Part shown: positions 16,549 through 50,115 of the stretch, piece after piece
How positions within the stretch are numbered: the first letter of the stretch is position 1
Layout: each line of letters opens with the position of its first letter
Sequence record: OR062945.1
Strand: one strand, 5' to 3'
Source: Escherichia phage 308Ecol101PP
DNA length: 64,000 nt
Made by a program: the position numbers and the translations under genes
The notes under the pieces: model-generated
Databases searched by the model: none
What the model saw: the letters and a program-made list of their open reading frames with translations, nothing else
Told to the model about the DNA's origin: nothing

Positions 16549-19260
16549 ATGAAAGAATTTTACTTAACGGTTGAACAGATTGGTGATTCAATTTTTGAAC
16601 GTTACATCGATTCTAACGGCCGTGAACGTACTCGTGAAGTAGAATATAAACCATCACTGTTTGCTCATTGTCCAGAAAGTCAGGCTACGAAATATTTCGA
16701 TATCTACGGTAAGCCGTGTACTCGTAAGTTGTTCGCCAATATGCGTGATGCCTCCCAATGGATTAAACGCATGGAAGATATCGGACTTGAAGCACTTGGC
16801 ATGGATGATTTCAAATTGGCGTATTTGTCTGACACTTATAACTATGAAATCAAATACGACCATACAAAAATTCGTGTGGCTAACTTCGACATCGAAGTAA
16901 CATCTCCGGACGGGTTCCCTGAGCCGTCACAAGCAAAACATCCGATTGATGCTATCACTCATTATGACTCAATTGATGACAGGTTTTATGTATTTGACCT
17001 TTTGAATTCTCCATATGGTAATGTAGAAGAATGGTCTATTGAAATCGCTGCTAAGCTTCAAGAACAAGGCGGTGATGAAGTTCCATCTGAAATTATCGAT
17101 AAAATCATTTATATGCCGTTCGATAACGAAAAAGAATTGTTGATGGAATATCTCAACTTCTGGCAACAGAAAACTCCTGTCATTTTGACTGGATGGAACG
17201 TTGAGTCATTTGATATTCCATATGTGTATAACCGAATCAAGAATATTTTTGGCGAATCTACTGCGAAACGTTTATCACCACATCGTAAAACTCGTGTTAA
17301 AGTTATCGAAAACATGTATGGTTCTCGTGAAATCATTACATTGTTCGGTATCTCTGTTCTTGATTACATTGACCTTTACAAAAAATTCTCTTTTACCAAT
17401 CAACCATCATATTCTCTGGATTACATTTCAGAATTTGAATTGAACGTTGGTAAACTGAAATATGACGGCCCTATTTCTAAGCTTCGTGAAAGCAATCACC
17501 AACGATATATTTCTTATAACATTATCGACGTGTATCGTGTATTGCAAATTGATGCTAAACGTCAGTTCATCAACTTGAGTTTGGACATGGGTTATTATGC
17601 TAAGATACAGATTCAATCTGTGTTTAGCCCAATTAAAACATGGGATGCTATTATTTTTAATAGCCTTAAAGAGCAGAACAAGGTGATTCCACAAGGTCGT
17701 TCTCACCCGGTTCAACCTTATCCCGGCGCTTTTGTTAAGGAACCTATTCCAAATCGATACAAATATGTAATGAGTTTCGACCTTACATCTCTGTATCCAA
17801 GTATTATTCGCCAAGTGAATATTAGCCCAGAAACAATAGCAGGAACGTTTAAAGTAGCTCCACTACATGATTATATTAACGCAATCGCTGAACGTCCTTC
17901 TGATGTGTACAGTTGTTCTCCTAACGGCATGATGTATTATAAAGACCGTGACGGTGTTGTTCCAACTGAAATCACTAAAGTCTTTAATCAACGTAAAGAA
18001 CATAAAGGTTACATGCTTGCAGCTCAACGTAATGGCGAAATAATTAAAGAGGCATTGCATAATCCTAATCTTTCTGTTGACGAACCATTAGATGTTGATT
18101 ATCGTTTCGACTTCAGTGATGAGATTAAAGAAAAGATTAAAAAGTTGTCTGCTAAATCTCTTAATGAAATGTTGTTTAGAGCTCAACGTACTGAAGTTGC
18201 AGGTATGACTGCCCAAATTAACCGTAAATTGCTTATCAACTCACTTTATGGTGCACTTGGCAACGTTTGGTTCCGTTATTATGATTTGCGTAATGCTACT
18301 GCAATCACAACATTCGGGCAAATGGCTTTACAGTGGATTGAACGTAAAGTTAATGAATATCTGAATGAAGTTTGTGGCACAGAAGGTGAAGCTTTCGTTC
18401 TTTATGGTGATACAGACTCTATTTACGTATCTGCTGATAAAATTATCGATAAGGTTGGTGAATCTAAATTCCGTGATACCAACCATTGGGTAGACTTCTT
18501 AGATAAGTTTGCACGTGAACGTATGGAACCAGCTATTGATAGAGGTTTCCGTGAAATGTGTGAATACATGAACAATAAACAACACTTAATGTTCATGGAC
18601 CGAGAAGCTATCGCTGGGCCTCCACTCGGTTCTAAAGGTATTGGTGGATTCTGGACTGGTAAGAAACGTTATGCATTAAACGTGTGGGATATGGAAGGAA
18701 CCAGATACGCTGAGCCTAAACTCAAAATCATGGGTCTAGAGACTCAGAAATCTTCGACTCCTAAAGCAGTACAGAAAGCTCTTAAAGAATGTATTCGTCG
18801 TATGCTTCAAGAAGGTGAAGAATCATTACAAGAATATTTTAAAGAGTTTGAAAAAGAATTCCGTCAATTGAATTATATTAGCATCGCGTCGGTATCTTCT
18901 GCGAATAACATTGCTAAATATGATGTAGGTGGATTCCCTGGTCCTAAATGCCCGTTCCATATTCGTGGAATTCTGACGTATAACCGGGCTATCAAAGGTA
19001 ATATCGATGCACCGCAAGTTGTAGAAGGTGAAAAAGTATATGTTCTGCCTTTACGTGAAGGAAACCCATTCGGTGATAAATGTATCGCATGGCCTTCTGG
19101 TACTGAAATCACAGATTTAATTAAAGACGATGTACTTCATTGGATGGACTACACTGTTCTCCTTGAGAAGACATTTATTAAACCACTTGAAGGATTCACA
19201 TCAGCAGCGAAACTCGATTACGAGAAGAAAGCATCTCTGTTCGATATGTTCGATTTTTGA
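16549..19260 (+). CDS. 43: DNA polymerase gp43 (family B, with 3'-5' exonuclease)
   Basis: 903 aa; exonuclease motif FDIEV, polymerase motifs DLTSLYPSI, KLLINSLYG and YGDTDS; N-terminus matches my memory of RB69 gp43. Confidence 0.95.
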   Translation: MKEFYLTVEQIGDSIFERYIDSNGRERTREVEYKPSLFAHCPESQATKYFDIYGKPCTRKLFANMRDASQWIKRMEDIGLEALGMDDFKLAYLSDTYNYEIKYDHTKIRVANFDIEVTSPDGFPEPSQAKHPIDAITHYDSIDDRFYVFDLLNSPYGNVEEWSIEIAAKLQEQGGDEVPSEIIDKIIYMPFDNEKELLMEYLNFWQQKTPVILTGWNVESFDIPYVYNRIKNIFGESTAKRLSPHRKTRVKVIENMYGSREIITLFGISVLDYIDLYKKFSFTNQPSYSLDYISEFELNVGKLKYDGPISKLRESNHQRYISYNIIDVYRVLQIDAKRQFINLSLDMGYYAKIQIQSVFSPIKTWDAIIFNSLKEQNKVIPQGRSHPVQPYPGAFVKEPIPNRYKYVMSFDLTSLYPSIIRQVNISPETIAGTFKVAPLHDYINAIAERPSDVYSCSPNGMMYYKDRDGVVPTEITKVFNQRKEHKGYMLAAQRNGEIIKEALHNPNLSVDEPLDVDYRFDFSDEIKEKIKKLSAKSLNEMLFRAQRTEVAGMTAQINRKLLINSLYGALGNVWFRYYDLRNATAITTFGQMALQWIERKVNEYLNEVCGTEGEAFVLYGDTDSIYVSADKIIDKVGESKFRDTNHWVDFLDKFARERMEPAIDRGFREMCEYMNNKQHLMFMDREAIAGPPLGSKGIGGFWTGKKRYALNVWDMEGTRYAEPKLKIMGLETQKSSTPKAVQKALKECIRRMLQEGEESLQEYFKEFEKEFRQLNYISIASVSSANNIAKYDVGGFPGPKCPFHIRGILTYNRAIKGNIDAPQVVEGEKVYVLPLREGNPFGDKCIAWPSGTEITDLIKDDVLHWMDYTVLLEKTFIKPLEGFTSAAKLDYEKKASLFDMFDF

Positions 19261-19300
19261 TATAATGACATGGACGGTAAACTAATTAAATGAGAGAAAT

Positions 19301-19936
19301 ATGAAAACTACTCCTATTACTATCGCTATTGACGCAATCATAAAACAAGCTTCTTCTTTGGCCGCTATGGCCAAAGTAATTAGTCAAAACCCTGCTCGTT
19401 ATAATGCTATTCTAGAAACTCTTCGACGCCCAGGACTTAGTAATTATGAAAGCCGAGTAATTATTACAGGTGTTGGTAAGAATGCTAATATTGCAACTAA
19501 AGCTTCTGAGACATTTGCTTCACTTGGTATCCCGAGTATGTACTTGAACACTGGGCATTATTCTCACGGTGATGCAGGATTCATTGCGCCTAATGATGTG
19601 TTGATTCATATTAGTCGTTCTGGTAAAACTGAAGAAATGATAGGCGTGGCTAAGCATCTTAAAATGATTCGTCCGAACGTCAAACAGATTCTGTTGCATT
19701 GTAACCCGGACATTCCACAAGAATACGAAGCTCTTTTTGATTATACGTTCTGTACAGGCATCGCAGTAGAGGTTGATGAGAATTCTCTGGCTCCGACCAT
19801 GTCCACTACATTGTTGTTAGCGCTTATCGATACGTTTGCTATCAACCTTTCGTCTGAACGTGGATTTACCTCTAATGACTTCCTTAAGTTCCACCCTGGT
19901 GGTGCACTAGGTGCCATGTTACGAGGCGAACAATGA
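19301..19936 (+). CDS. SIS-domain sugar-phosphate isomerase (KdsD/GutQ-like or GmhA-like, no CBS domains)
   Basis: 211 aa; SIS-like pattern GVGKNANIA...SRSGKTEE and C-terminal HPGGALG, characteristic of arabinose-5-phosphate isomerase SIS domains. Confidence 0.7.
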   Translation: MKTTPITIAIDAIIKQASSLAAMAKVISQNPARYNAILETLRRPGLSNYESRVIITGVGKNANIATKASETFASLGIPSMYLNTGHYSHGDAGFIAPNDVLIHISRSGKTEEMIGVAKHLKMIRPNVKQILLHCNPDIPQEYEALFDYTFCTGIAVEVDENSLAPTMSTTLLLALIDTFAINLSSERGFTSNDFLKFHPGGALGAMLRGEQ

Positions 19937-20076
19937 AAGCAATAACAATAGGACTTTTACTATTGATGCTTGTCATGACTATCTACTGGAGCTTAACGGC
20001 TCCAGTAATGATTCCGACTCTTATAATCGGATGGATTATGATTGGACTACAAGCAAAGTATGAATGCTTTAACTAG
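19933..20076 (+). CDS. hypothetical small membrane protein (47 aa, not in ORF track)
   Basis: Hand-translated ATG 19933 (ATGA overlap) to TAG 20074-20076; almost entirely hydrophobic. Confidence 0.35.
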   Translation: MKAITIGLLLLMLVMTIYWSLTAPVMIPTLIIGWIMIGLQAKYECFN

Positions 20077-20117
20077 AATAGTGTACAATACTCCTACTTA
20101 CCAATGAGGACCACAAC

Positions 20118-21803
20118 ATGAAAAAAGCTGTTATTCTTGGTGCTGGACTGGCAACTCGTTTGTATCCAATAACGCATCATATTCCTAAGGTGCTTGTTAA
20201 CTATAAACAAGACACTATTCTGAGCAATTTGTATACAATTTATTCTGACCTTGGCGCAGATGAAATTATTGTAGTAGTTCATTCAAAATTTGCTGAAACT
20301 GTTCGAGCTTATTGTGAGCAAGAAGGGTTCAATGTGACTATTCGTACAGTTGATGAAGCGTATGGTTCTGCTTATGCTCTTGCTAAATTGCACAAAGATT
20401 TAGACGGCCATAATGTAATTGTTAACTGGTGTGATATTATTCCTGATTTTGGTTCGTGGTCTTGGAATGTTAACGCAATCTATGTTAAGGGTGACGAATG
20501 TCGATATAATTTCGACGGTGAAAATATCACTAATGTAGGTTCAACAGGTGGTAATGTTGTAGGAATTTATCAGTTCAAAGACTGGGAATTCTATATGGGT
20601 TCTACTGATGAGGAAATTCATGAATACTGCAAAGGACGTGATTTCGTAGAATTCCTTTACGGCAGCGCATTCAATAAATCAGAGCTTATGAATCTAATTG
20701 ATTTAGGTGATATGCCTAAACTTGAAAAAGCTCATGAAGTTCGTGAACTTAATCGTAGTTTTAATGCAGTTGAAATTGGTGAAGAAACTGTAACTAAATT
20801 CGCATTAACCGAACAGGGCCGAGCTCTTCAGAAAGATGAGATTTCATGGTATCTTAAAGTGAAATCAGATTCAGTTCCTCAGTTAGTTTCTGTTAATGAA
20901 AATAACTTTGAAATGGAACGCATTAAAGGTAAGCCGGCATTTGAATATATTAAATCCAAATCAAGTCTTGCTCGTCCACAAATTGTTGATGCAATTTTAG
21001 ATGCACTGAAATTCAGCACAGACACTTATTTTGTAAGTCCTGAAACTGTTCGTCGTGATTTCACTAAAGAATTCTATACTAAAGTTATTGATCGTTGTGA
21101 AAGTATTCAACCATTGATTGATTCATTTGGTAAAATCACACATGTGAACTACACTAAGATTGGGCGTCTGAAGCCAATGTTGAAACAAGCTTTAGAACAC
21201 CTTATTCGTTATCATAACCGTTCTCAGGGACAGTACTCTGTTATTCATGGTGACCCGAACTTCAGTAATACTATGATTACTGATAATGGTGAAGTCAAGT
21301 TTATCGACCCTCGTGGATATTTTGGTGAAACCAAGATTTATGGGCCAAAATTGTATGATGAAGCTAAAGTGCTTTACGCTGTTTCAGGTTATGATGAATT
21401 CAACGCTAATCCGACTTGGGGACAGTTTACTATTGATGAAACAACTTGTAATGTGACTATTAACATCAATCCGTTAGTTTACAAATATGGAAAGATGAGT
21501 TCGTTTAACGAGTATCATCATTTGGCAGTGGCAATTATCTGGATTGCATTAGGTGGTTATTTCAAGAATAATCCACTTAAAGCGGTAGCCGCATATTATA
21601 AAGGTATGGAACTTCTGACTAAGCAATTACGTAATATGGGCCGTGTACTTCAGGACGGCACTATTAGTTATGATGTAGCAGAACCTGTAACGGCTACTCT
21701 GATTACAAAAAATCCTGGTAAATGGGTACTAACTGATAAAGAAACTGGTGTTTCTTATCGTCCAATCGGTGGCGATATCACTCATCAATGGGAACGAATC
21801 TAA
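20118..21803 (+). CDS. bifunctional sugar-1-phosphate nucleotidyltransferase / kinase-fold protein
   Basis: N-terminus ILGAGLATRLYPIT resembles the G-x-G-T-R motif of sugar nucleotidyltransferases; C-terminal HGDPNFSNTMI...KFIDPRG resembles the catalytic loop of APH/choline-kinase-fold kinases. Confidence 0.7.
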   Translation: MKKAVILGAGLATRLYPITHHIPKVLVNYKQDTILSNLYTIYSDLGADEIIVVVHSKFAETVRAYCEQEGFNVTIRTVDEAYGSAYALAKLHKDLDGHNVIVNWCDIIPDFGSWSWNVNAIYVKGDECRYNFDGENITNVGSTGGNVVGIYQFKDWEFYMGSTDEEIHEYCKGRDFVEFLYGSAFNKSELMNLIDLGDMPKLEKAHEVRELNRSFNAVEIGEETVTKFALTEQGRALQKDEISWYLKVKSDSVPQLVSVNENNFEMERIKGKPAFEYIKSKSSLARPQIVDAILDALKFSTDTYFVSPETVRRDFTKEFYTKVIDRCESIQPLIDSFGKITHVNYTKIGRLKPMLKQALEHLIRYHNRSQGQYSVIHGDPNFSNTMITDNGEVKFIDPRGYFGETKIYGPKLYDEAKVLYAVSGYDEFNANPTWGQFTIDETTCNVTININPLVYKYGKMSSFNEYHHLAVAIIWIALGGYFKNNPLKAVAAYYKGMELLTKQLRNMGRVLQDGTISYDVAEPVTATLITKNPGKWVLTDKETGVSYRPIGGDITHQWERI

Positions 21804-22189
21804 TGCACCGTGTAAAAAACATGCTTAATCTTTGTTTTGATGTCGATGATTGTATAACAGAGTGGAATAACAATCGTGATTACGTGAACTTCAAACCAGA
21901 CGTCGAAATGGTGTCTGCCATTAATGCCCTGTATGATGCAGGGCATACCATAACGCTTTACACTGCTCGCGGTATGAAGTCAGTAGGTCCTGGTCGTATA
22001 GCAATTGACATTCTCCCAAGTCTGATTCAGAACTTGGCAAACATTGGATTGAAGTACCATAATTTGCTAACACATAAACCAGTATATGATTGGATTATCG
22101 ACGACAAAGCTATGCGTCCTGACGAATTCAAAGCTCTTATGAATAAAGGCGAATTCGAAACATTTAAATCATATAAACCGAATCTATAA
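21803..22189 (+). CDS. HAD-superfamily phosphatase
   Basis: 128 aa with HAD motif I (FDVDDCIT); TAATG overlap with upstream gene; track start 21788. Confidence 0.6.
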   Translation: MHRVKNMLNLCFDVDDCITEWNNNRDYVNFKPDVEMVSAINALYDAGHTITLYTARGMKSVGPGRIAIDILPSLIQNLANIGLKYHNLLTHKPVYDWIIDDKAMRPDEFKALMNKGEFETFKSYKPNL

Positions 22190-22235
22190 TAATTTAAGTA
22201 AGACCTGCAAAAACCATCGCATCAATTAACGTGGG

Positions 22236-23411
22236 ATGCAAAAAAAAAAAATGAATACTTTTAAAATCGGAACGAATTTTGATTTAGCTCTTCTTGATAA
22301 AATCGTAGAGCTCAATAAAACTTATCCTAATAGCTTGATAAACGAAGTATACGGCTCTACAAGAGAAATGGCTTTTGTAGCAGCCAGACCTGATTTTAGG
22401 CTTCCTGACGTTGACAAAAAGATGTTAGAAGATTACGTTAAACGTTGTAACGAATTAGGTATTTGCTTTAACTATACACTCAACACGATAAATCCTGGTT
22501 CAAAAAGAGAACTAGTTGAGTGGAAGAAGAAAGCTATTCAGGATTATGTTCAGTATCTTTGGTCAATAGGCGTATGGCGTATTACTATCGCTAACCCTGT
22601 TGTTATGGAAATTGTTCGTGAAGTCAATAAAGACATTGAGATTGAAGTTTCAACAATTCTACATGTCGATGCTGTAACTCAAATCAAATACTTGCATGAC
22701 CAATATAATATCAAAAAGGTCTGCTGTGGAATTCATAAGAACCGTTCAGTTTCTTTCCTGAAACGTGCAGCAGAGTTTTGTAATAAGAACAATATAATAT
22801 TTGAAGTTCTTGTAAATGAGTTCTGTTCTAATGCTGGTAAAGGGTACACAACACATTGTAGCTATCGTGACTCTTGCTATATTTTCCATAGCACCGATGT
22901 TACAGTAGATGATGCCAAATCCTTAAATGGATATCCAATGCAACACTGTATTAAAGCTCGTGATACAGATCCATTTAACTGGTTGAGAACTCGTTTTGTT
23001 CGTCCTCAAGATTTGAAACTTTATAATGATATTGGTATCACTCAATTTAAAGTTTCAGGACGTACAGGTAGCACCGACTACATTTTAAAAGTTCTTGAAG
23101 CTTACGCTTCTGAAAAGTTTGAAGGTAATTTGTTGGAATTGTGGAAGCCTTTAGAGACCATTTTCACTCTTGAAAATGAGACTGAGTTTTCACATACGGT
23201 AAATATTGAAACCTCTTTGTTAGACGGCTTTTTAGAAAAAAGGTGGTTCAAACATCCAGATTTCGATTGTGCTAATGAAATCTGCGGGACGACGTGTACA
23301 TATTGTGAAAGATATTATAAACGTCAGTTATCTAAAAATGGGTTATCAGAAAACTCTATATCTATTATTGATATAACTAACTCTGATGACGCTTTGAGGT
23401 ACCCAGAATGA
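22236..23411 (+). CDS. hypothetical Cys-rich protein (start at ATG 22236 or 22251)
   Basis: 391 aa with many Cys (CCGIH, EFCSNAG, HCSYRDSC, CANEICGTTCTYCE); an A12 tract lies between the two candidate ATGs. Confidence 0.5.
   Translation: MQKKKMNTFKIGTNFDLALLDKIVELNKTYPNSLINEVYGSTREMAFVAARPDFRLPDVDKKMLEDYVKRCNELGICFNYTLNTINPGSKRELVEWKKKAIQDYVQYLWSIGVWRITIANPVVMEIVREVNKDIEIEVSTILHVDAVTQIKYLHDQYNIKKVCCGIHKNRSVSFLKRAAEFCNKNNIIFEVLVNEFCSNAGKGYTTHCSYRDSCYIFHSTDVTVDDAKSLNGYPMQHCIKARDTDPFNWLRTRFVRPQDLKLYNDIGITQFKVSGRTGSTDYILKVLEAYASEKFEGNLLELWKPLETIFTLENETEFSHTVNIETSLLDGFLEKRWFKHPDFDCANEICGTTCTYCERYYKRQLSKNGLSENSISIIDITNSDDALRYPE
22240..22251 (+). repeat. homopolymeric A12 tract at the 5' end of the Cys-rich gene
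   Basis: ATGCAAAAAAAAAAAATG read directly from the sequence. Confidence 0.8.
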
Positions 23412-23493
23412 TTTCTAGAAAAACTTTTAACCACCAACTTAACGAAGAGATTTTGACTATTAAAATTAACAGCAACGAACAAATTCTTAAAAA

Positions 23494-23513
23494 GGCCCTT
23501 ATGGGCCTGTTTG
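23494..23513 (+). terminator. candidate weak terminator hairpin
   Basis: GGCCC-TTAT-GGGCC followed by TGTTTG. Confidence 0.3.
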
Positions 23514-23645
23514 AAACTAAAGCGGCTAAAGTGATTAAAGAAACCTGTTCAACTAGAATACTACGCTGATGCATTTCTTCATAGTGTTCTTGGAAATATC
23601 GATGCTGAAGCTTTACGTTATATCAACATCGCTAAGAAATTCAAA

Positions 23646-23671
23646 TAAGCTTTATGAATTGAGTATATAAT
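23646..23671 (+). promoter_or_regulatory. candidate MotA-dependent middle promoter upstream of gene 42
   Basis: AAGCTTTA box, then 11 nt, then TATAAT (23666-23671). Confidence 0.4.
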
Positions 23672-23689
23672 AACTGTATTGAGGTAAAC

Positions 23690-24406
23690 ATGGGAAAACA
23701 TAACACAATGAAATATATTAAAGCCGCAGATTTTCAATCCGCATTTAAAGCTGTCAATCGTGAAATTTTAGAAAATCCACAGTTCGTTACTGATTCTCGT
23801 ATTGGACGTTGTAATGAAATTGGGTCTATGACAGTAGTTGTTGATACCCCTTCATCATTCAAAATGACCGACCCACGTATTAATCGCATCTCTTATGAAT
23901 ATGCTGAAGATTTCTGGAAATTTATGATTTCTGGTGGTACTGATGCAAAAGAAGCATTTAAGGCATATCCTAACGTTGCTAAATTTATTTCTAAACCTAA
24001 ATCAGACGCTTTGCCTGCAAACTTCAACACTTTCTATGGTCCACGAATTGCGGCCCAGTTACCAGCTCTTCTCAAAGAACTTAAAGAGAAACCTAATTCA
24101 CGAAGAGTTGTGTTTCAAATTCTTGAAAGTTCAGATCAGGCTTTGCTTGATTCGGATGAAACGCTTGAATATCCATGTACTGACTCAGTGACTTATTATA
24201 TTCGTGATGGTAAGCTTTATACCCACTGTCATATGCGTTCTCAGAACTGTGCTGTTGTTATGCAGTTGGATTTTTATCTCCAAGGAAAATTACTTCATTA
24301 TATCGCTAACGAATGTGGTGTAGAAGTTGGTGATTATACTCATACCATGGTAAGTGCCCATGTGTTTGAACGTGATTTTGATTATGTTAAAGGATTCCTT
24401 GACTAA
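23690..24406 (+). CDS. 42: dCMP hydroxymethylase (thymidylate-synthase fold)
   Basis: 238 aa; TS-family pattern SRRVVFQIL ... YPCTDS (catalytic Cys) ... QLDFY (Asp 31 residues after the Cys, as in cytosine-specific members). Confidence 0.7.
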   Translation: MGKHNTMKYIKAADFQSAFKAVNREILENPQFVTDSRIGRCNEIGSMTVVVDTPSSFKMTDPRINRISYEYAEDFWKFMISGGTDAKEAFKAYPNVAKFISKPKSDALPANFNTFYGPRIAAQLPALLKELKEKPNSRRVVFQILESSDQALLDSDETLEYPCTDSVTYYIRDGKLYTHCHMRSQNCAVVMQLDFYLQGKLLHYIANECGVEVGDYTHTMVSAHVFERDFDYVKGFLD

Positions 24407-25305
24407 TGGCTATTTTCCGCGTACCTATCTTGAGTATGCGGTCTTATGAAACTGGACAGTATGCTATCCTTAAGGATGGCAACTTCCAACTTCATTTGCA
24501 CCGTGCTAATCCGGGTGATGTGATTACATATCCACGTAATGCATCTGATATTAAAGAATGCGAACGTCTTTTTCCAGAATTTAAGTTTGTTCCATTATGG
24601 TATAAAGATAACGCGTATAACACTCGTAAATATTTCTGGTCTGAAAATGAATTTGTGGTTGATTCATTAATTGCTTATTATGATTGTGATTTTCTAATCA
24701 CAGATATCACTGGATATGACGGCGCTTTTGATGTGGAATTCAATTTCAATATCACTGCAGACCCTAATAAACCACGTTTTTATATTGACGAATTCTTAAA
24801 AACCGACATGTTGTCGGTTAATCGTTCACTTCAAACTACTGTGTTGAATGAACGTCAAAAAGAAGTGCTGGTTAACGCAGGTGCAGATGGTAATAAGATT
24901 ATCGTAACCCAGAAAGTTATACGTCCTTCCATCATGCAGCGTCTTGTAGGTGATTTGGCTCCTATTCATCTAGATGGTATTTTTCATCCATTTCGAATTA
25001 GTGACCCGTGCTATCGTTTTGAACAAGTGGTTGAATGTGCAATTCAATTAGGTCAACCGCTTTATATAACTGATCCAAATAATAGTTTCGACAGAAATAA
25101 GTATCCTGAAGAAGCGCTGATTCGAATTTTTAATCCAACTAAAACTGAGTACTATCAAATTCTTAAAGGACGTCCGAAGATTCAATATTTCGAAAATCCT
25201 GAAGAAGTATTCCATCCAGGTCTTGGTGAGTTCATCTACTTTAATGCTTTAATTTCTTCGCCGTATAATATACCTAAATACGAAGATGTCGTAATCGAGG
25301 AATAA
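24406..25305 (+). CDS. hypothetical protein at the locus where T4 encodes beta-glucosyltransferase
   Basis: 299 aa, TAATG overlap with gene 42; no resemblance to T4 beta-GT that I can see. Confidence 0.5.
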   Translation: MAIFRVPILSMRSYETGQYAILKDGNFQLHLHRANPGDVITYPRNASDIKECERLFPEFKFVPLWYKDNAYNTRKYFWSENEFVVDSLIAYYDCDFLITDITGYDGAFDVEFNFNITADPNKPRFYIDEFLKTDMLSVNRSLQTTVLNERQKEVLVNAGADGNKIIVTQKVIRPSIMQRLVGDLAPIHLDGIFHPFRISDPCYRFEQVVECAIQLGQPLYITDPNNSFDRNKYPEEALIRIFNPTKTEYYQILKGRPKIQYFENPEEVFHPGLGEFIYFNALISSPYNIPKYEDVVIEE

Positions 25306-25306
25306 A

Positions 25307-25855
25307 ATGGTTAAAATTATTTTAGTAGATGGCCCGGATAATGCCGGTAAAACAACTTTCATTAATGACATAATGGAAATTAGTGAAAGATATGTAAAGA
25401 TTGATTTCCCTAAACGAACAGTTGATGGACGTTTCGATGTTAAGTCTCGAAATGAAGTTGGCTGTTTCGAAACGATGTTGAATTATTTAGACCCTACTAA
25501 GATTTATCTGTTAGACCGTGGATATATTAGTAACTGGGTTTATGGACGTATTCGACAAGATGCGGACTCGGTTCTTGACGTTTATGAACAGGATTATGTT
25601 CGTCTTTGCCAAAACCATGATGTGTTCACAATTATTTTAACACGTAACGAAATGACTGAAAGTTTTGAAGACGACCTTATTACTTTGTCTTCATTCGGTT
25701 TTAATACAGTCATTTCATATTTTGAAGAGTTTGCAATTCATAACAAAATCCAAACGTATCAATTACTTAATCATGACGGTGCTAACAAAGTTATAGGATT
25801 TAATGCAAGCGAACGTAATTATTTGATTACAGAAATTATCAAATGGGCTCGTTAA
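25307..25855 (+). CDS. P-loop nucleotide kinase, thymidylate-kinase-like
   Basis: 182 aa; Walker A VDGPDNAGKTT and DRGY motif as in the Tmk family. Confidence 0.55.
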   Translation: MVKIILVDGPDNAGKTTFINDIMEISERYVKIDFPKRTVDGRFDVKSRNEVGCFETMLNYLDPTKIYLLDRGYISNWVYGRIRQDADSVLDVYEQDYVRLCQNHDVFTIILTRNEMTESFEDDLITLSSFGFNTVISYFEEFAIHNKIQTYQLLNHDGANKVIGFNASERNYLITEIIKWAR

Positions 25856-25873
25856 GAGCCTGTTTAAAGTTTT

Positions 25874-25901
25874 AAATGCTGTATAACCCTTAGTATATAA
25901 T
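25874..25901 (+). promoter_or_regulatory. candidate middle promoter upstream of uvsX
   Basis: AAATGCTGTA box-like element, then 12 nt, then TATAAT (25896-25901). Confidence 0.35.
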
Positions 25902-25954
25902 CGTCTTATCTTTTAAACATGAGTAAAATATAATGATGCCTATGGAAAAATACA

Positions 25955-27127
25955 ATGTCTGATTTAAAATCTCGTCTGATTAAAGCTTCTACTTCTAAAA
26001 TGACTGCAGACTTGACTAAGTCTAAGCTGTTTAATAATCGTGATGAAGTCCCTACTCGTATTCCGATGTTGAATATTGCATTAGGTGGTGCACTGAATGC
26101 CGGGTTGCAATCAGGCTTAACTATTTTTGCTGCTCCTTCTAAACACTTTAAAACGTTGTTTGGGCTGACCATGGTTGCAGCATATATGAAGAAATATAAA
26201 GATGCAATTTGTTTGTTCTATGATTCAGAATTTGGTGCTTCAGAATCTTATTTTCGTTCAATGGGTGTTGATTTAGACCGTGTAGTTCATACTCCTATTC
26301 AATCTGTCGAACAACTTAAAGTTGATATGACTAATCAGCTTGACGCGATTGAACGTGGTGATAAAGTTATTATCTTTATCGATTCAATCGGTAATACTGC
26401 ATCTAAGAAAGAAACCGAAGATGCGTTGAACGAGAAAGTCGTAGGTGATATGTCTCGTGCTAAGGCACTTAAATCTCTTTTCCGTATTGTGACCCCGTAT
26501 CTGACTATTAAAGATATTCCGTGTGTTGCAATTAACCATACAGCAATGGAAATCGGCGGATTGTATCCTAAAGAGATTATGGGCGGTGGTACAGGTATTC
26601 TTTATTCTGCCAACACGGTATTTTTTATCTCTAAACGTCAGGTTAAAGAAGGCACAGAATTGACCGGTTATGACTTCACGTTGAAAGCAGAAAAATCTCG
26701 AACCGTTAAAGAAAAATCTACTTTCCCAATCACGGTTAATTTTGATGGTGGTATCGACCCATTCAGTGGCTTGTTAGAAATGGCAACTGAAATTGGTTTT
26801 GTAGTTAAGCCTAAAGCCGGGTGGTATGCTCGAGAATTCCTTGACGAAGAAACAGGCGAAATGATTCGTGAAGAAAAATCATGGCGTGCTAAAGCTACTG
26901 ATTGTGTAGAATTCTGGGGACCGTTGTTTAAACACAAACCTTTCCGAGACGCAATTGAAACTAAATATAAACTAGGTGCTATCTCTTCTATTAAAGAAGT
27001 TGATGACGCTGTTAATGACCTTATTAATTGCAAAGCAACAACTAAAGTTCCGGTTAAAACTTCTGATGCACCGTCTGCAGCAGATATAGAAAACGACCTT
27101 GACGAAATGGAAGATTTCGATGAATAA
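25955..27127 (+). CDS. uvsX: RecA-like recombinase UvsX
   Basis: 390 aa; N-terminus and RecA-fold core match T4 UvsX from memory. Confidence 0.9.
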   Translation: MSDLKSRLIKASTSKMTADLTKSKLFNNRDEVPTRIPMLNIALGGALNAGLQSGLTIFAAPSKHFKTLFGLTMVAAYMKKYKDAICLFYDSEFGASESYFRSMGVDLDRVVHTPIQSVEQLKVDMTNQLDAIERGDKVIIFIDSIGNTASKKETEDALNEKVVGDMSRAKALKSLFRIVTPYLTIKDIPCVAINHTAMEIGGLYPKEIMGGGTGILYSANTVFFISKRQVKEGTELTGYDFTLKAEKSRTVKEKSTFPITVNFDGGIDPFSGLLEMATEIGFVVKPKAGWYAREFLDEETGEMIREEKSWRAKATDCVEFWGPLFKHKPFRDAIETKYKLGAISSIKEVDDAVNDLINCKATTKVPVKTSDAPSAADIENDLDEMEDFDE

Positions 27128-27461
27128 TCTCGATGATTTAAATCTAGAAATCGTTGATGAATCCCCTTCTTCGGAAGGGGAAGACATTCGCAAAGAACGA
27201 GTGTTTAATGAATCTCTTAAAATTATCCGTTCAGCAATGGAAAATGTCATTCAAGAGATTCTGATTACACTTGAAGACGGTTCTCATCATATAGTCTATA
27301 TTACAAAACTAGACTGGGTTGATGGTAAAATCGTAATGGACTTTGCAGTTCTTGACCAGGATAGAAAAGCAGAACTTGCACCACATGTTGAAAAATGTGT
27401 TACAATGCAAGTACAACAAGCTTTTAATGAACGGACCAAGAAAAAATTTAAATTCTTTTAA
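27120..27461 (+). CDS. 40: gp40 head vertex assembly chaperone (by position)
   Basis: 113 aa between uvsX and 41; track ORF begins at TTG 27099, first ATG at 27120. Confidence 0.5.
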   Translation: MNNLDDLNLEIVDESPSSEGEDIRKERVFNESLKIIRSAMENVIQEILITLEDGSHHIVYITKLDWVDGKIVMDFAVLDQDRKAELAPHVEKCVTMQVQQAFNERTKKKFKFF

Positions 27462-46495: not shown

Positions 46496-47596
46496 ATGAA
46501 AGTTATGTTTATCCCATCTCGCGCAGTCCCATTTAATCCTGACCGTGTACAAGGTGGTCTTGAAGCAGTACATTTAAATGTGTTGAAATATCTTGTGTCC
46601 ATCGGTGCTGATATTGATTATATCGGCTTTGATAATGACACGTTTGGTGACTGGAAAGTTACACACCATCCTGTTGGTCATCTGACTAAATTTAGTCTAG
46701 GTATGAGTTATACTATGGCTCGTAAGATTGTTGAACTAGCCGGCATCCATGAATACGATTTTGTTGTTACTATGGAACCGACTAAACTAACCGTTCAGGC
46801 AATTAAAGACGCAGGTCTCTCTAAAGTTCATAAGAATTTTATGGCAACACCATTTGAACCGGTATCTCGTGGCATTGTTCAAATTTGGGACCAGACTATT
46901 CAAATTCATAAGAATGGTGGTAAGAGTTATGCTCCTACTAAAGCCTTCCGTGAATTTGAACGCAAATATTGTTATATGACTTCAGGTCTGACTGACAAAA
47001 TTGATTATGATTATTGGCGAGCAAATCCGTTGTTTGAAGCCGAAGATTATCCGGTTATTTGTTTGAATGAGAAACCTGAAGTTCTTCCGGCGACTGATCT
47101 GATTATTAGTGCACAACGTTATGACACTAAAATGCGTCGTACTGATGTTGCTCTTGAAGCGATTAAAGCACTAGGCGAAAATGGTGTAGGATACTGTCCA
47201 AGCAAATGGGCACCACCAGCTAAATATCCTGTTATTATTGATGCTCCACACAGTGAAATCATGGAACGTCTTAAAACAGCTAAAGCGCTTATTAATACGT
47301 GTCCTGACACAGGTACGGTAGAGAATAGTTCTATTGAAGCCATCTCTAAAGGTGTCCCTGTAATCCAGTTAGTTTTTAAGGATTATCCTCATGCGACATT
47401 CGAATACGACCCAGATACTGTGCGTGTAGAAATTGATTCCTCTACTCCTAAGAAAGAAGTAGTTGCGCTTTACACAAAAGCTGTATTAGAATTCACTGAC
47501 ACATACGAAGCTCGAGTTAAACGTGCTGAAGCAGTATGGAAGAAGTATAACCGAGATGCAGTTGTTGCGATGTGGGATAAAATCTTCACAGCGTAA
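46496..47596 (+). CDS. GT-B fold glycosyltransferase (GT4-like), candidate DNA glycosyltransferase
   Basis: 366 aa; C-terminal E-x7-E-type motif VENSSIEAISKGVPVIQ typical of GT4 retaining glycosyltransferases; N-terminus MKVMFIPSRAVPFNPDRVQGG. Confidence 0.6.
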   Translation: MKVMFIPSRAVPFNPDRVQGGLEAVHLNVLKYLVSIGADIDYIGFDNDTFGDWKVTHHPVGHLTKFSLGMSYTMARKIVELAGIHEYDFVVTMEPTKLTVQAIKDAGLSKVHKNFMATPFEPVSRGIVQIWDQTIQIHKNGGKSYAPTKAFREFERKYCYMTSGLTDKIDYDYWRANPLFEAEDYPVICLNEKPEVLPATDLIISAQRYDTKMRRTDVALEAIKALGENGVGYCPSKWAPPAKYPVIIDAPHSEIMERLKTAKALINTCPDTGTVENSSIEAISKGVPVIQLVFKDYPHATFEYDPDTVRVEIDSSTPKKEVVALYTKAVLEFTDTYEARVKRAEAVWKKYNRDAVVAMWDKIFTA

Positions 47597-47901: not shown

Positions 47902-50115
47902 ATGATTATTGAAACGGCTAAAGAAACGATTATTGGTTCAGGCGGTAAGAGCACAGCATTTACTATTCAAGGCAATAGCAAAGTTTATAAGATTTTGTCT
48001 AATGACCTTTATACAAACAAAGAATTGGCTTGTGTACGTGAATTAATCACAAACTGTATTGATGGGCAAATTCTTAATGGTTGCACTGATAAGTTTATTG
48101 TTCAGGCTCCAGGTCGTTTAGACCCACGTTTTGTAGTTCGTGATTTTGGACCTGGTATGAGTGATTTCACTATTCGTGGTAATGACGAAGAGCCAGGAAT
48201 TTATAACTCATATTTTGCTTCAACTAAAACATCGAGTAACGATTTCATTGGTGGATTCGGACTCGGCTCTAAAGCTCCATTAGCATATACTGATACGTTT
48301 AACCTTACGTCTTATCATAATGGTGAAGTTCGTGGTTACGTAATCTACCAAGATGACACAGGTCCACAGATTAAGCCGACCTTTGTAGATAAGATGGGTC
48401 CTGATGACCGTACGGGTGTAGAAGTAGTTGTACCGGTTAACCCGGAAGATTTTGAAAAGTTTGCATCCGAAATTGCATATGTTATGCGTCCTCTAGGTGA
48501 TATTGCAGAAGTTCGTGGTGTTAAAGATATTAAATACTTCCCAGAATTTGATGATGTATATTTGGCCAAGGAAGCTCCATGGGGTGAACGTGGTAATATC
48601 ATGGCTGTTTATGGCGGTATTGTATATCCAATCGGAAGTGTTATTAAAGAACAAACATGGATGATGACACGATGCACTACAGCTTATATTAAATTCCCAA
48701 TGGGTGAACTAGATGTTGCTCCGTCTCGCGAAGCATTGTCATTTGATAAACGTACAGTAGCAAATATCCATAAACGCGTTGCAGAAATCGATGCTAAATT
48801 GTTCGCTGAAGATTCTAAGAAATGGATTGATTGTAAATACCCACGACATGTGTTCCGCGAAATTGATTCTCTTGGCTATACCGCTCGTAAATACATGGAA
48901 AAGGCCGGGTCTAATATTGAATCACTGAAATACTCTAAAGAACAACTAACTTATTCTGAGTTGTACAAACGTTTTAAAATGGGACCTGAGTGGTGTAATC
49001 TTGGTGTCGTATACGATATCGTTGAATCCCCTCGTCTTCGTCGTATTCGTGAAAGTGGTAGCTCATCATCAACCATTTCAATTAACAGCCTGATTGGCAT
49101 TAACATTAAAAACGTTGAAATTGTTATTGACGATGTTAAGGGACGCGTTCCATTAATGCGAGCTCTTAATTCAATTGAAATGTCTAAAGACGAGGTTAAA
49201 TTATCCGGTAAAGTTCCACGCGGTTTTGGTAAAAGCGTACTATTCGTTGACCCTACAGACGAAGATGCAATGAAACTTCTGGAACGCCTTAAAGTTATCT
49301 TTGATGGCGACAACATTAACATGTACAAGACTTCAGAGCTTTTACAAATCGTTAAGCCATGGATTGAAGTCAGGAAACGGACTAATGAGCCTCGTCCTAA
49401 ATCCCCGAGTGCTCATCGATTCTTTAAGAATGAAAACGATGTTTGGGTATCAGAAGACCTCTTTATTCCGGCAAGTGAAGCAGATGAAATCCAAGGTTAT
49501 GCTATAGTTCGTAATCGTTCTAATGCTGAATGTCTTGACGCAGATAAAGGTTGGTTGAACTATGACTCCAATTTCTTGACCCGTATTGCTGATTTGTCAG
49601 GTATTAAAGAGTTCACTGTAGTTCGTCCACAGATTGCTAAGAAAGTTCGTAAACTTGGTGAAGTAGAATGCTTGTTCGAAAAATCAATTAATGACTATAT
49701 TACGCTAATTGATAAAGTGGATTATGATGAGTATGTATCACCAAGTCGTAGAGCACAGCCTTATTTGAATCATATTACTCGTAACGAAGAGCTTAACTTC
49801 CTTAGTAAGTATTTTAGCTCTAAGAACAAAGAAATCAGTAAAGACTTTGCAAAACTCTCAACAGTAAATAATCGTTGGGGATGGAATCGATTCGCAGGTG
49901 CTACTAATACAGACCTGAATAAGAAGTTAGAATTGTGTGCTAAAATTTTCGATAAGCTTAAAGATAATGCTTACGATAATGATGATAAAATGGTTATTGA
50001 ATTCGAAACCAATTATCATATTGTGTCAGAATACATGGGACGACGTGGTACTCTTTCCAAAGAACAGGTCGCTCAAATCGTTAAATTCATGAAGGCCGTG
50101 GAAGCGGCCAAATAA
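47902..50115 (+). CDS. rIIA: rIIA protein
   Basis: 737 aa (T4 rIIA about 725 aa), N-terminal ATPase-like region, position upstream of rIIB. Confidence 0.8.
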   Translation: MIIETAKETIIGSGGKSTAFTIQGNSKVYKILSNDLYTNKELACVRELITNCIDGQILNGCTDKFIVQAPGRLDPRFVVRDFGPGMSDFTIRGNDEEPGIYNSYFASTKTSSNDFIGGFGLGSKAPLAYTDTFNLTSYHNGEVRGYVIYQDDTGPQIKPTFVDKMGPDDRTGVEVVVPVNPEDFEKFASEIAYVMRPLGDIAEVRGVKDIKYFPEFDDVYLAKEAPWGERGNIMAVYGGIVYPIGSVIKEQTWMMTRCTTAYIKFPMGELDVAPSREALSFDKRTVANIHKRVAEIDAKLFAEDSKKWIDCKYPRHVFREIDSLGYTARKYMEKAGSNIESLKYSKEQLTYSELYKRFKMGPEWCNLGVVYDIVESPRLRRIRESGSSSSTISINSLIGINIKNVEIVIDDVKGRVPLMRALNSIEMSKDEVKLSGKVPRGFGKSVLFVDPTDEDAMKLLERLKVIFDGDNINMYKTSELLQIVKPWIEVRKRTNEPRPKSPSAHRFFKNENDVWVSEDLFIPASEADEIQGYAIVRNRSNAECLDADKGWLNYDSNFLTRIADLSGIKEFTVVRPQIAKKVRKLGEVECLFEKSINDYITLIDKVDYDEYVSPSRRAQPYLNHITRNEELNFLSKYFSSKNKEISKDFAKLSTVNNRWGWNRFAGATNTDLNKKLELCAKIFDKLKDNAYDNDDKMVIEFETNYHIVSEYMGRRGTLSKEQVAQIVKFMKAVEAAK

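Follow-up and report, generated by a model that had tools for sequence, protein, structure and literature searches.

Phages of the RB69 type carry their virion cytosine as mono- and di-arabinofuranosyl-5-hydroxycytosine, and not as arabinosyl-hydroxymethylcytosine; the hydroxyl group is introduced by a flavin-bound homologue of thymidylate synthase (ThyA), which uses O2 to make 5-hydroxy-dCMP (5hodCMP) (Lee et al., NAR 2026, PMC13326640, also citing He et al.). The same work treats the replacement D169N as diagnostic of 5hodCMP synthases, demonstrates this activity for RB69 gp48 and mentions a crystal structure of the hydroxylase of phage HY126. In its summary of the sugar branch, an AfhE-like enzyme makes UDP-arabinofuranose and AfhF is the arabinose-1,5-bisphosphate 5-phosphatase of phage HY126. 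RB69 gp46:47 and DLP3 gp79 are listed as putative ‘arabinosyltransferase 1’, and a protein of the TH1_063 type is the single arabinosyltransferase of the mono-arabinosylating phage Thanatos (PMC13326640). Here we examine two adjacent genes, encoding proteins of 299 and 182 amino acids (aa), in a 64,000-nucleotide stretch of Escherichia phage 308Ecol101PP (OR062945.1), which is referred to in full as the window. We favour, with moderate confidence, a reading in which 5-hydroxycytosine receives its first arabinofuranose from the 299-aa protein, and the 182-aa protein, a companion of the module, phosphorylates 5-substituted dCMP. Both genes, and the role proposed for the transferase, are already in the literature, and the pathway was worked out in 2025-2026, so the locus adds no new system.

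The window belongs to a Mosigvirus, of the RB69 group of T4 relatives, as does its annotated relative 348Ecol098PP. Positions 20000-27200 share 98.4% DNA identity with Escherichia phage F2 and 97.8% with phage HY126, and about 150 further records match at least 80% of this query in a nucleotide search. Relatives in which arabinosylated 5-hydroxycytosine has been shown chemically in virion DNA are RB69, NP, Bas46/47 and HY126. In the window the genes run in the order DNA polymerase, SIS isomerase, 561-aa nucleotidyltransferase/kinase, HAD phosphatase, U32-family protein, ThyA homologue, 299-aa protein, 182-aa protein and uvsX, whereas T4 has 43, imm.1, imm, 42, b-gt, segA and uvsX. The three genes at the centre of this report are:

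23690..24406, + strand: ThyA-family flavin-dependent dCMP 5-hydroxylase (5hodCMP synthase), from its match to PDB 9iqc and its RSQN...D signature
24406..25305, + strand: 299-aa compact GT-B (GT4-like) glycosyltransferase, predicted first arabinofuranosyltransferase, from its predicted structure and homologues
25307..25855, + strand: 182-aa P-loop kinase of the thymidylate-kinase fold, from its predicted fold and motifs

The ThyA homologue is near-identical to PDB entries 9iqc, 9ir2 and 9iqu (E 1.7e-163), which we infer to be the HY126 hydroxylase structures from the neighbouring entry 9iqz, titled ‘phage HY126 glycosyltransferase’. When aligned, the window protein reads MRSQN...D where T4 gp42 reads MRSND...D, which is the D169N plus N177D signature. 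An earlier note on this DNA, made from the sequence alone, had described open reading frames (ORFs) for proteins of 299 and 182 aa at 24406-25855, in the slot held by b-gt in T4 and within a DNA-modification locus. The ORFs exist as described and, by their PHROG matches and numbers of homologues, lie far outside what chance would give, the T4 gene order agrees with the slot, and membership of an arabinosyl-5-hydroxycytosine module bears out the locus: the window contains a ThyA homologue with the diagnostic Asn (hereafter N-signature ThyA), three UDP-arabinose genes and a second transferase. The note went astray over the upstream gene, taken for a T4-type gene 42; the 9iqc match and D169N identify a dCMP 5-hydroxylase. 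Since this enzyme is not a hydroxymethylase, the accompanying premise of 5-hydroxymethyl-dCMP fails as well, the pathway intermediate being 5hodCMP (PMC13326640). The note’s claim that both genes are coupled through TAATG overlaps holds for one junction. The stop codon of the ThyA-family gene (TAA, 24404-24406) shares its last base with the ATG of the 299-aa ORF at 24406, giving TAATG, whereas the next junction reads TAAAATG (stop 25303-25305, one spacer base, ATG at 25307) and is tightly coupled without overlap, with a GAGGA Shine-Dalgarno sequence before the kinase ATG lying within the 3′ end of the 299-aa ORF. A consensus scan of 19000..27300 for promoters and terminators gave no signal exceeding that of shuffled controls, so the stretch reads as a single tightly packed block.

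Sequence comparison of the 299-aa protein gave a strong match to phrog_3891 (E 1.5e-155), a family of unknown function, and 138 homologous clusters in a set of 5.8 billion proteins. No Pfam family was found at E up to 0.1, Glycos_transf_1 and Glyco_trans_4 included, there was no NCBIfam match, and the family profile matched no PDB sequence. As the sequence libraries gave nothing beyond PHROG, the protein was identified only by its predicted structure. The AlphaFold2 model, built from an alignment of 47 diverse homologues, has a mean predicted local distance difference test score of 94.7 and shows two Rossmann-like domains with a cleft between them, that is, a GT-B fold resembling GT4. Its structural matches include sucrose-phosphate synthase 6kih (17.8, with 270 residues aligned), BshA (16.9), PimA (16.0), the 366-aa HY126 transferase 9iqz (14.6) and T4 α-glucosyltransferase (13.3). 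T4 β-glucosyltransferase (β-GT) is absent from the top 60. In the C-terminal half of the family R197, K246 and H270-P271-G272 are invariant and position 275 is always Glu or Asp, these being candidate counterparts of the donor-binding Arg/Lys and Glu of PimA or the α-glucosyltransferase.

The 299-aa protein resembles T4 b-gt in its slot between a ThyA-family gene and uvsX, and both would be GT-B enzymes decorating a hydroxylated cytosine, as predicted for the window protein. Orthology to T4 β-GT was considered and rejected, the specific similarity to b-gt that it calls for being absent, and the model indicates that the slot of b-gt is taken here by a non-orthologous transferase. Among characterised and annotated phages it is homologous to RB69 gp46:47, DLP3 gp79 and Thanatos TH1_063, the last of which (L020:5995-6897; L-numbers denote the loci compared here) is 47% identical. 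There is no material difference from RB69 gp46:47, although a sequencing error in the RB69 record splits that gene into two ORFs, whereas the window gene is intact. The first-transferase assignment is supported by the position of the 299-aa homologue downstream of an N-signature ThyA and by its being the sole transferase of mono-arabinosylating Thanatos; the same assignment was reached in PMC13326640.

The 182-aa protein matches phrog_761 (E 4.6e-44), has homologues in 27 clusters of the 5.8-billion-protein set and is labelled ‘thymidylate kinase’ by both RefSeq and PHROG. Its conserved core, taken from 46 diverse relatives, consists of G9, D11, G14, K15, D70-R71, S75, N76, Y79, R113, F120, D122, D123 and N133, with D11, K15, D70 and R71 conserved in 95-100% of members; the P-loop position of the arginine of thymidylate kinase (Tmk) is an invariant Asn. 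Three of these elements, the P-loop Asp, the DR motif and the Ser-x3-aromatic motif (S75/Y79), are those with which thymidylate kinases bind the dNMP at its deoxyribose and phosphate. Their retention points to a nucleotide rather than a sugar as substrate. In Tmk, the arginine that reads thymine O4 is R78 in E. coli and R76 in human. At this position the window family has an invariant Leu58, according to a manual motif alignment (AEVLMF...R in Tmk, NEVGCF...L here) made without structural superposition. Because the hhalign alignment with E. coli Tmk is confined to the P-loop, the comparison of substrate sites depends on this manual alignment, from which a leucine in place of the arginine would fit a non-thymine, cytosine-type base. 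The kinase therefore shares with Tmk (PF02223, TIGR00041) both the fold and these motifs (P-loop Asp, DR and Ser-x3-aromatic), and differs in a short and acidic LID, in the apparent Leu for the O4-reading arginine and in scores far below the family cut-offs. Membership of the T4 gp1 type was also rejected, as the kinase lacks specific structural similarity to 1dek/1del; T4 gp1, a dNMP kinase, probably does a related job in phosphorylating modified dCMP.

Much of what the earlier note had proposed for the two proteins agrees with these results. The Walker A motif VDGPDNAGKTT spans residues 7-17, and LLDRGY spans residues 68-73. Structure prediction, which the note had called for, returned a thymidylate-kinase fold with nucleotide kinases as the closest structural matches, and fold and P-loop/DR motifs together support its description of the kinase as thymidylate-kinase-like. 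For the 299-aa protein, the compact GT-B fold confirms its guess of a divergent glycosyltransferase. Its suggestion that the kinase might activate a sugar was discarded, together with the sugar-kinase reading in general: the 182-aa protein keeps its dNMP-binding motifs, and the pathway has a separate sugar kinase in the C-terminal domain of the AfhE-like enzyme.

Kinase and transferase are linked well beyond this group of phages. A tblastn search found 343 phage records with the kinase and 348 with the transferase, the kinase/transferase counts by genus nearly matching (Escherichia 176/176, Acinetobacter 57/57, Klebsiella 25/26, Shigella 15/15). Loci fetched via the kinase hold ThyA, transferase and kinase together in enterobacterial and Acinetobacter phages, and TH1_062, TH1_063 and TH1_064 form the equivalent triad in Thanatos. 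Conversely, among 57 IMG/VR loci fetched via the transferase, 52 contain a kinase-family ORF, and three of the five that do not stop at a contig edge directly after the transferase; an N-signature ThyA homologue stands immediately upstream of the transferase in 50. Where the kinase stands is variable: after the transferase in Mosig-, Karam- and Acinetobacter-type phages, ahead of ThyA in the Dhaka type and ahead of U32 in the Marfa and Proteus types. An exhaustive HMMER search of 1.84 billion representatives (E up to 0.001) gathered only 291 clusters, which indicates a small viral family and not the cellular thymidylate kinase. The 182-aa protein is homologous to RB69 gp45, DLP3 gp78 and Thanatos TH1_064. 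RB69 gp45, DLP3 gp78 and RL38J1 gp214 are listed only as ‘nucleotide kinase’ in PMC13326640. The Figure 3 legend of the preprint (bioRxiv 10.1101/2025.06.16.659550) named DLP3 gp78 and RB69 gp45 as the ‘cognate dNMP kinases’ expressed together with the hydroxylase, whereas the published legend (PMC13326640) instead names gp169 and gp159, which are of the gp1 type.

Morganella phage MP1 (NC_031020) separates the kinase from the rest of the cluster. Its polymerase is followed by two small ORFs, the kinase (L087:20500-21030) and uvsX, whereas its relative Rgz1 carries a full cluster in the same interval. Profile searches of 145 of the 163 kb of MP1, leaving out about 18 kb within the structural-gene block (95001-113299), found no transferase-family member, N-signature ThyA, U32 or sugar genes, and MP1 is absent among the top matches listed for the Rgz1 transferase and hydroxylase. 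The MP1 kinase is 61% identical to that of Rgz1 (uvsX, 93%), keeps all family-invariant residues and, on this evidence from sequence, looks functional without the transferase. An intact kinase in MP1, where no transferase was found, makes it probable that the kinase can act without one. The pattern favours a kinase for 5-substituted dCMP over an obligate transferase partner or a kinase specific for a glycosylated nucleotide. The ‘thymidylate synthase’ at the td locus of MP1 (L089:28721-29560) reads QRSADVPLGLNFD, with Asp at the N177 position that decides between cytosine and uracil; given this cytosine-type Asp, MP1 may make a different 5-substituted dCMP and thus another modified cytosine. 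MP1 also encodes DenB-like and dCTPase-like proteins.

More distant relatives of the kinase are fused to other domains. Several proteins of 314-357 aa have HhH-GPD as their C-terminal domain, and a UDG domain is found in one, with full-length matches down to E 8e-19. The fusions located here are:

L022:8001-9074: P0179, kinase fused to a DNA-glycosylase-type domain
L024:127-1092: P0185, kinase fused to a DNA-glycosylase-type domain
L023:200-1129: P0253, kinase fused to a DNA-glycosylase-type domain

P0179, on a 47-kb contig, has an N-signature ThyA homologue (RSNN...D) on one side and, on the other, genes for FMN reductase, a SIS isomerase that shares 48% identity with that of the window and an AfhE-like enzyme. 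Downstream of P0185 lie a gene distantly homologous to that of the 299-aa transferase and one for a family-A polymerase. The T4-like contig L026 combines ThyA and the kinase with a transferase-family protein of 402 aa. Such arrangements recall SP10 gp186, in which the 5-hydroxymethyluracil DNA kinase (5-HMUDK) is fused to an HhH-fold enzyme (aG/PT-PPlase) of thymidine hypermodification, and the association of 5-HMUDK with a ThyA-family enzyme (PMC5889632). The 5-HMUDK and aG/PT-PPlase systems of SP10, PhiW-14, ViI and M6 are alike in linking a P-loop kinase to a ThyA-family enzyme, and in the HhH fusions among relatives of the window kinase. They are unlike in that the window kinase is unfused and that their chemistry, in which a hydroxymethyl group is activated for substitution, does not extend to O-glycosylation. 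The kinase family matches M6 gp54 (5-HMUDK) with an hhalign probability of 81.6% (E 1.1e-5) across only 82 N-terminal columns around the P-loop; a broad hidden Markov model of the family aligns only residues 2-25 of gp54, which has no DR motif, and the fused C-terminal domains of the kinase relatives do not match the M6 aG/PT-PPlases. Specific homology to 5-HMUDK and the aG/PT-PPlases (M6 gp54 and its partners) is therefore not demonstrated, the similarity being confined to the P-loop region.

Taken together, the module would operate as follows. The ThyA-like enzyme would hydroxylate dCMP at C5 with flavin and O2, and 5hodCMP would be phosphorylated and then incorporated by the polymerase, while the isomerase and the AfhE-like and AfhF-like enzymes would supply UDP-arabinofuranose; these steps have been shown elsewhere for near-identical proteins. 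The 299-aa GT-B enzyme would then move the first, α-linked, base-proximal arabinofuranose from UDP-arabinofuranose to the cytosine 5-hydroxyl, and the 366-aa transferase would attach the second arabinose. The 182-aa kinase would convert 5hodCMP to the diphosphate, duplicating the activity of the gp1-type dNMP kinase. Of these proposals, the transferase half appears firmer to us than the kinase half.

Several results weigh against this scheme. On the transferase side, the purified DLP3 transferases, each alone, did not arabinosylate DNA containing 5-hydroxycytosine (5hoC) (PMC13326640), and TH1_063 produced UDP-xylose from UTP and xylose-1-phosphate and glycosylated neither DNA nor dCMP nor dCTP (PMC12838424). 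On the kinase side, the gp1-type kinase RB69 gp159 already turns 5hodCMP into 5hodCDP (PMC13326640), which makes a second kinase redundant in T4-like phages. Thymidylate-kinase models do not reach the 182-aa protein either: PF02223 was not reported, and the TIGR00041 score was 15.1 bits, with the cut-off at 83.25. In contrast to the basic LID of Tmk, that of the window kinase is acidic (invariant F120, D122 and D123, in F-E-D-D); neither this nor the fusion of some relatives to DNA-glycosylase-like domains is explained by a plain nucleotide kinase.

These difficulties invite other readings, two of which concern the transferase step. The sugar could be added at the nucleotide level, the first arabinose being placed on 5hodCMP before replication, the kinase serving arabinosyl-5hodCMP and the polymerase incorporating a sugar-bearing dCTP. 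This assembly line, if true, would be the first pre-replicative DNA glycosylation; we judge it unlikely. The order hydroxylase, transferase, kinase, with its coupled junctions, mirrors the order of reactions that it proposes, kinase and transferase adjoin or overlap in very different phage lineages, and plain 5hodCMP is already handled by the gp1-type kinase. The transferase family is also acidic (median isoelectric point 5.1, net charge −11), in contrast to the DNA-acting T4 β-GT (isoelectric point 9.05), but this is only a weak hint against DNA binding because the 366-aa transferase, which has DNA-acting relatives, is slightly acidic too. The MP1 kinase, evidently constrained in a phage where neither transferase nor hydroxylase was found, and the kinases that do not adjoin the transferase in Dhaka-, Marfa- and Proteus-type phages speak against such an assembly line. 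To our knowledge, moreover, all phage DNA glycosylation is post-replicative. The published work did not separate arabinosylation of DNA from that of the mononucleotide, and its single transferases were inactive on 5hoC DNA, results that are compatible with the assembly line; against it, 5hodC enters E. coli DNA without any transferase (PMC13326640). Still less probable, to the point that we give it very little weight, is that the 299-aa protein makes the donor as a UDP-pentose pyrophosphorylase and is not a transferase. It would account for the UDP-xylose formed by TH1_063 in vitro and for the absence of transfer (PMC12838424), but the fold is GT-B and not that of a nucleotidyltransferase, and the cluster already has an AfhE-like pyrophosphorylase. 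The acceptors in that assay appear to have lacked a 5-hydroxyl, so the negative transfer result says little. The assignment of TH1_063 as a UDP-xylose pyrophosphorylase is hard to square with a GT-B fold, and the activity may be a side activity or a contaminant.

The kinase itself could act on DNA or as a partner of the transferase, by analogy with 5-HMUDK and its HhH glycosylase-fold enzyme. The full-length HhH-GPD and UDG fusions, the setting of P0179 among hydroxylase and sugar genes, the transferase homologue after P0185 and the SP10 gp186 precedent with its ThyA-family association (PMC5889632) are all in keeping with such a role. We nevertheless find it doubtful, as M6 gp54 matches only around the P-loop and has no DR motif, the fused domains do not match the M6 aG/PT-PPlases, a phosphorylated ring hydroxyl would seem to offer no obvious path to an O-glycoside, and the window kinase is acidic, lacks a DNA-binding domain and has nucleotide kinases as its nearest structures. 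At the other extreme, an ordinary kinase for dTMP or another canonical dNMP might be hitch-hiking in a plastic region with no special link to modification, as the ‘thymidylate kinase’ labels, the thymidylate-kinase fold and retention in MP1 without the pathway would allow. This too has low probability in our view: the kinase and transferase co-occur nearly one to one in about 345 cultured phages, the link to the pathway extends to lineages only about 30% identical, and the family is small, of phage type (291 clusters) and far below thymidylate-kinase cut-offs. The thymine-reading arginine is apparently Leu by the manual alignment, and a gp1-type kinase, which these phages also carry, already covers dTMP; the specificity of T4 gp1 includes this nucleotide. 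A kinase for 5-substituted dCMP, beside a first arabinofuranosyltransferase, remains our preferred reading of the locus.

The DNA polymerase gene and the other genes of the module in the window are:

16549..19260: DNA polymerase
19301..19936, + strand: 211-aa SIS-domain arabinose-5-phosphate isomerase (Pfam SIS; annotated as phosphosugar isomerase in 348Ecol098PP)
20118..21803, + strand: 561-aa sugar-1-phosphate nucleotidyltransferase with an APH-like kinase, AfhE-like (Pfam NTP_transferase and weak kinase-family matches)
21788..22189, + strand: 133-aa HAD phosphatase, AfhF-like (phrog_1238, TIGR01689)
22236..23411, + strand: 391-aa U32-family protein of Fe-S type (Pfam Peptidase_U32)
46496..47596, + strand: 366-aa second glycosyltransferase, homologue of RB69 ORF003c (PDB 9iqz/9ir0, ‘phage HY126 glycosyltransferase’, E 4.7e-251)

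The 366-aa transferase has no Pfam match, lies just upstream of a 737-aa ORF (47902-50115) and is predicted to add the second arabinose. Between the U32 gene and the hydroxylase, a 53-aa ORF (23408-23569, + strand) overlaps the U32 stop codon; no family matches it, annotations of related phages call it hypothetical, and Rgz1 has a 54-aa ORF at the equivalent place.

The U32-family protein is the best conserved of the cluster, with 79.5% identity between the window and Thanatos compared with 43-47% for the transferase and kinase, and all 13 of its cysteines are invariant. It is labelled a ‘sugar or heterocycle reductase’ in PMC13326640. The U32 proteins UbiU/V, TrhP and RlhA have been linked with O2-independent, prephenate-dependent hydroxylation, including that of RNA cytidine and uridine at C5 (PMC10990095, PMC6599085). 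In Rgz1 a type II chorismate mutase, which makes prephenate, is encoded one small ORF downstream of U32 and directly upstream of the hydroxylase, and four metagenomic loci have a kinase-transferase-U32 block with no ThyA-family ORF within 13-17 kb. U32 is present in phages of Enterobacterales and Shewanella and missing from the loci of phages of Acinetobacter, an aerobe. The loci that bear on this lead are:

L086:16667-18397
L074:7457-10048
L075:4268-6862
L080:7424-9970
L078:7316-12176

The chorismate mutase neighbour, the ThyA-less blocks and the absence from Acinetobacter phages suggest an anaerobic route to 5-hydroxycytosine, in which the U32 protein may be a prephenate-dependent, O2-independent cytosine C5 hydroxylase. 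Our literature search found no paper linking a phage U32 protein to prephenate-dependent cytosine hydroxylation.

The near-universal linkage of kinase and transferase, the MP1 case and the fusions to glycosylase-like domains narrow the candidates for the substrate of the kinase. The modification to which these genes belong shields many coliphages that are therapeutic candidates, together with phages of Acinetobacter, Klebsiella and Serratia, from restriction enzymes and CRISPR.

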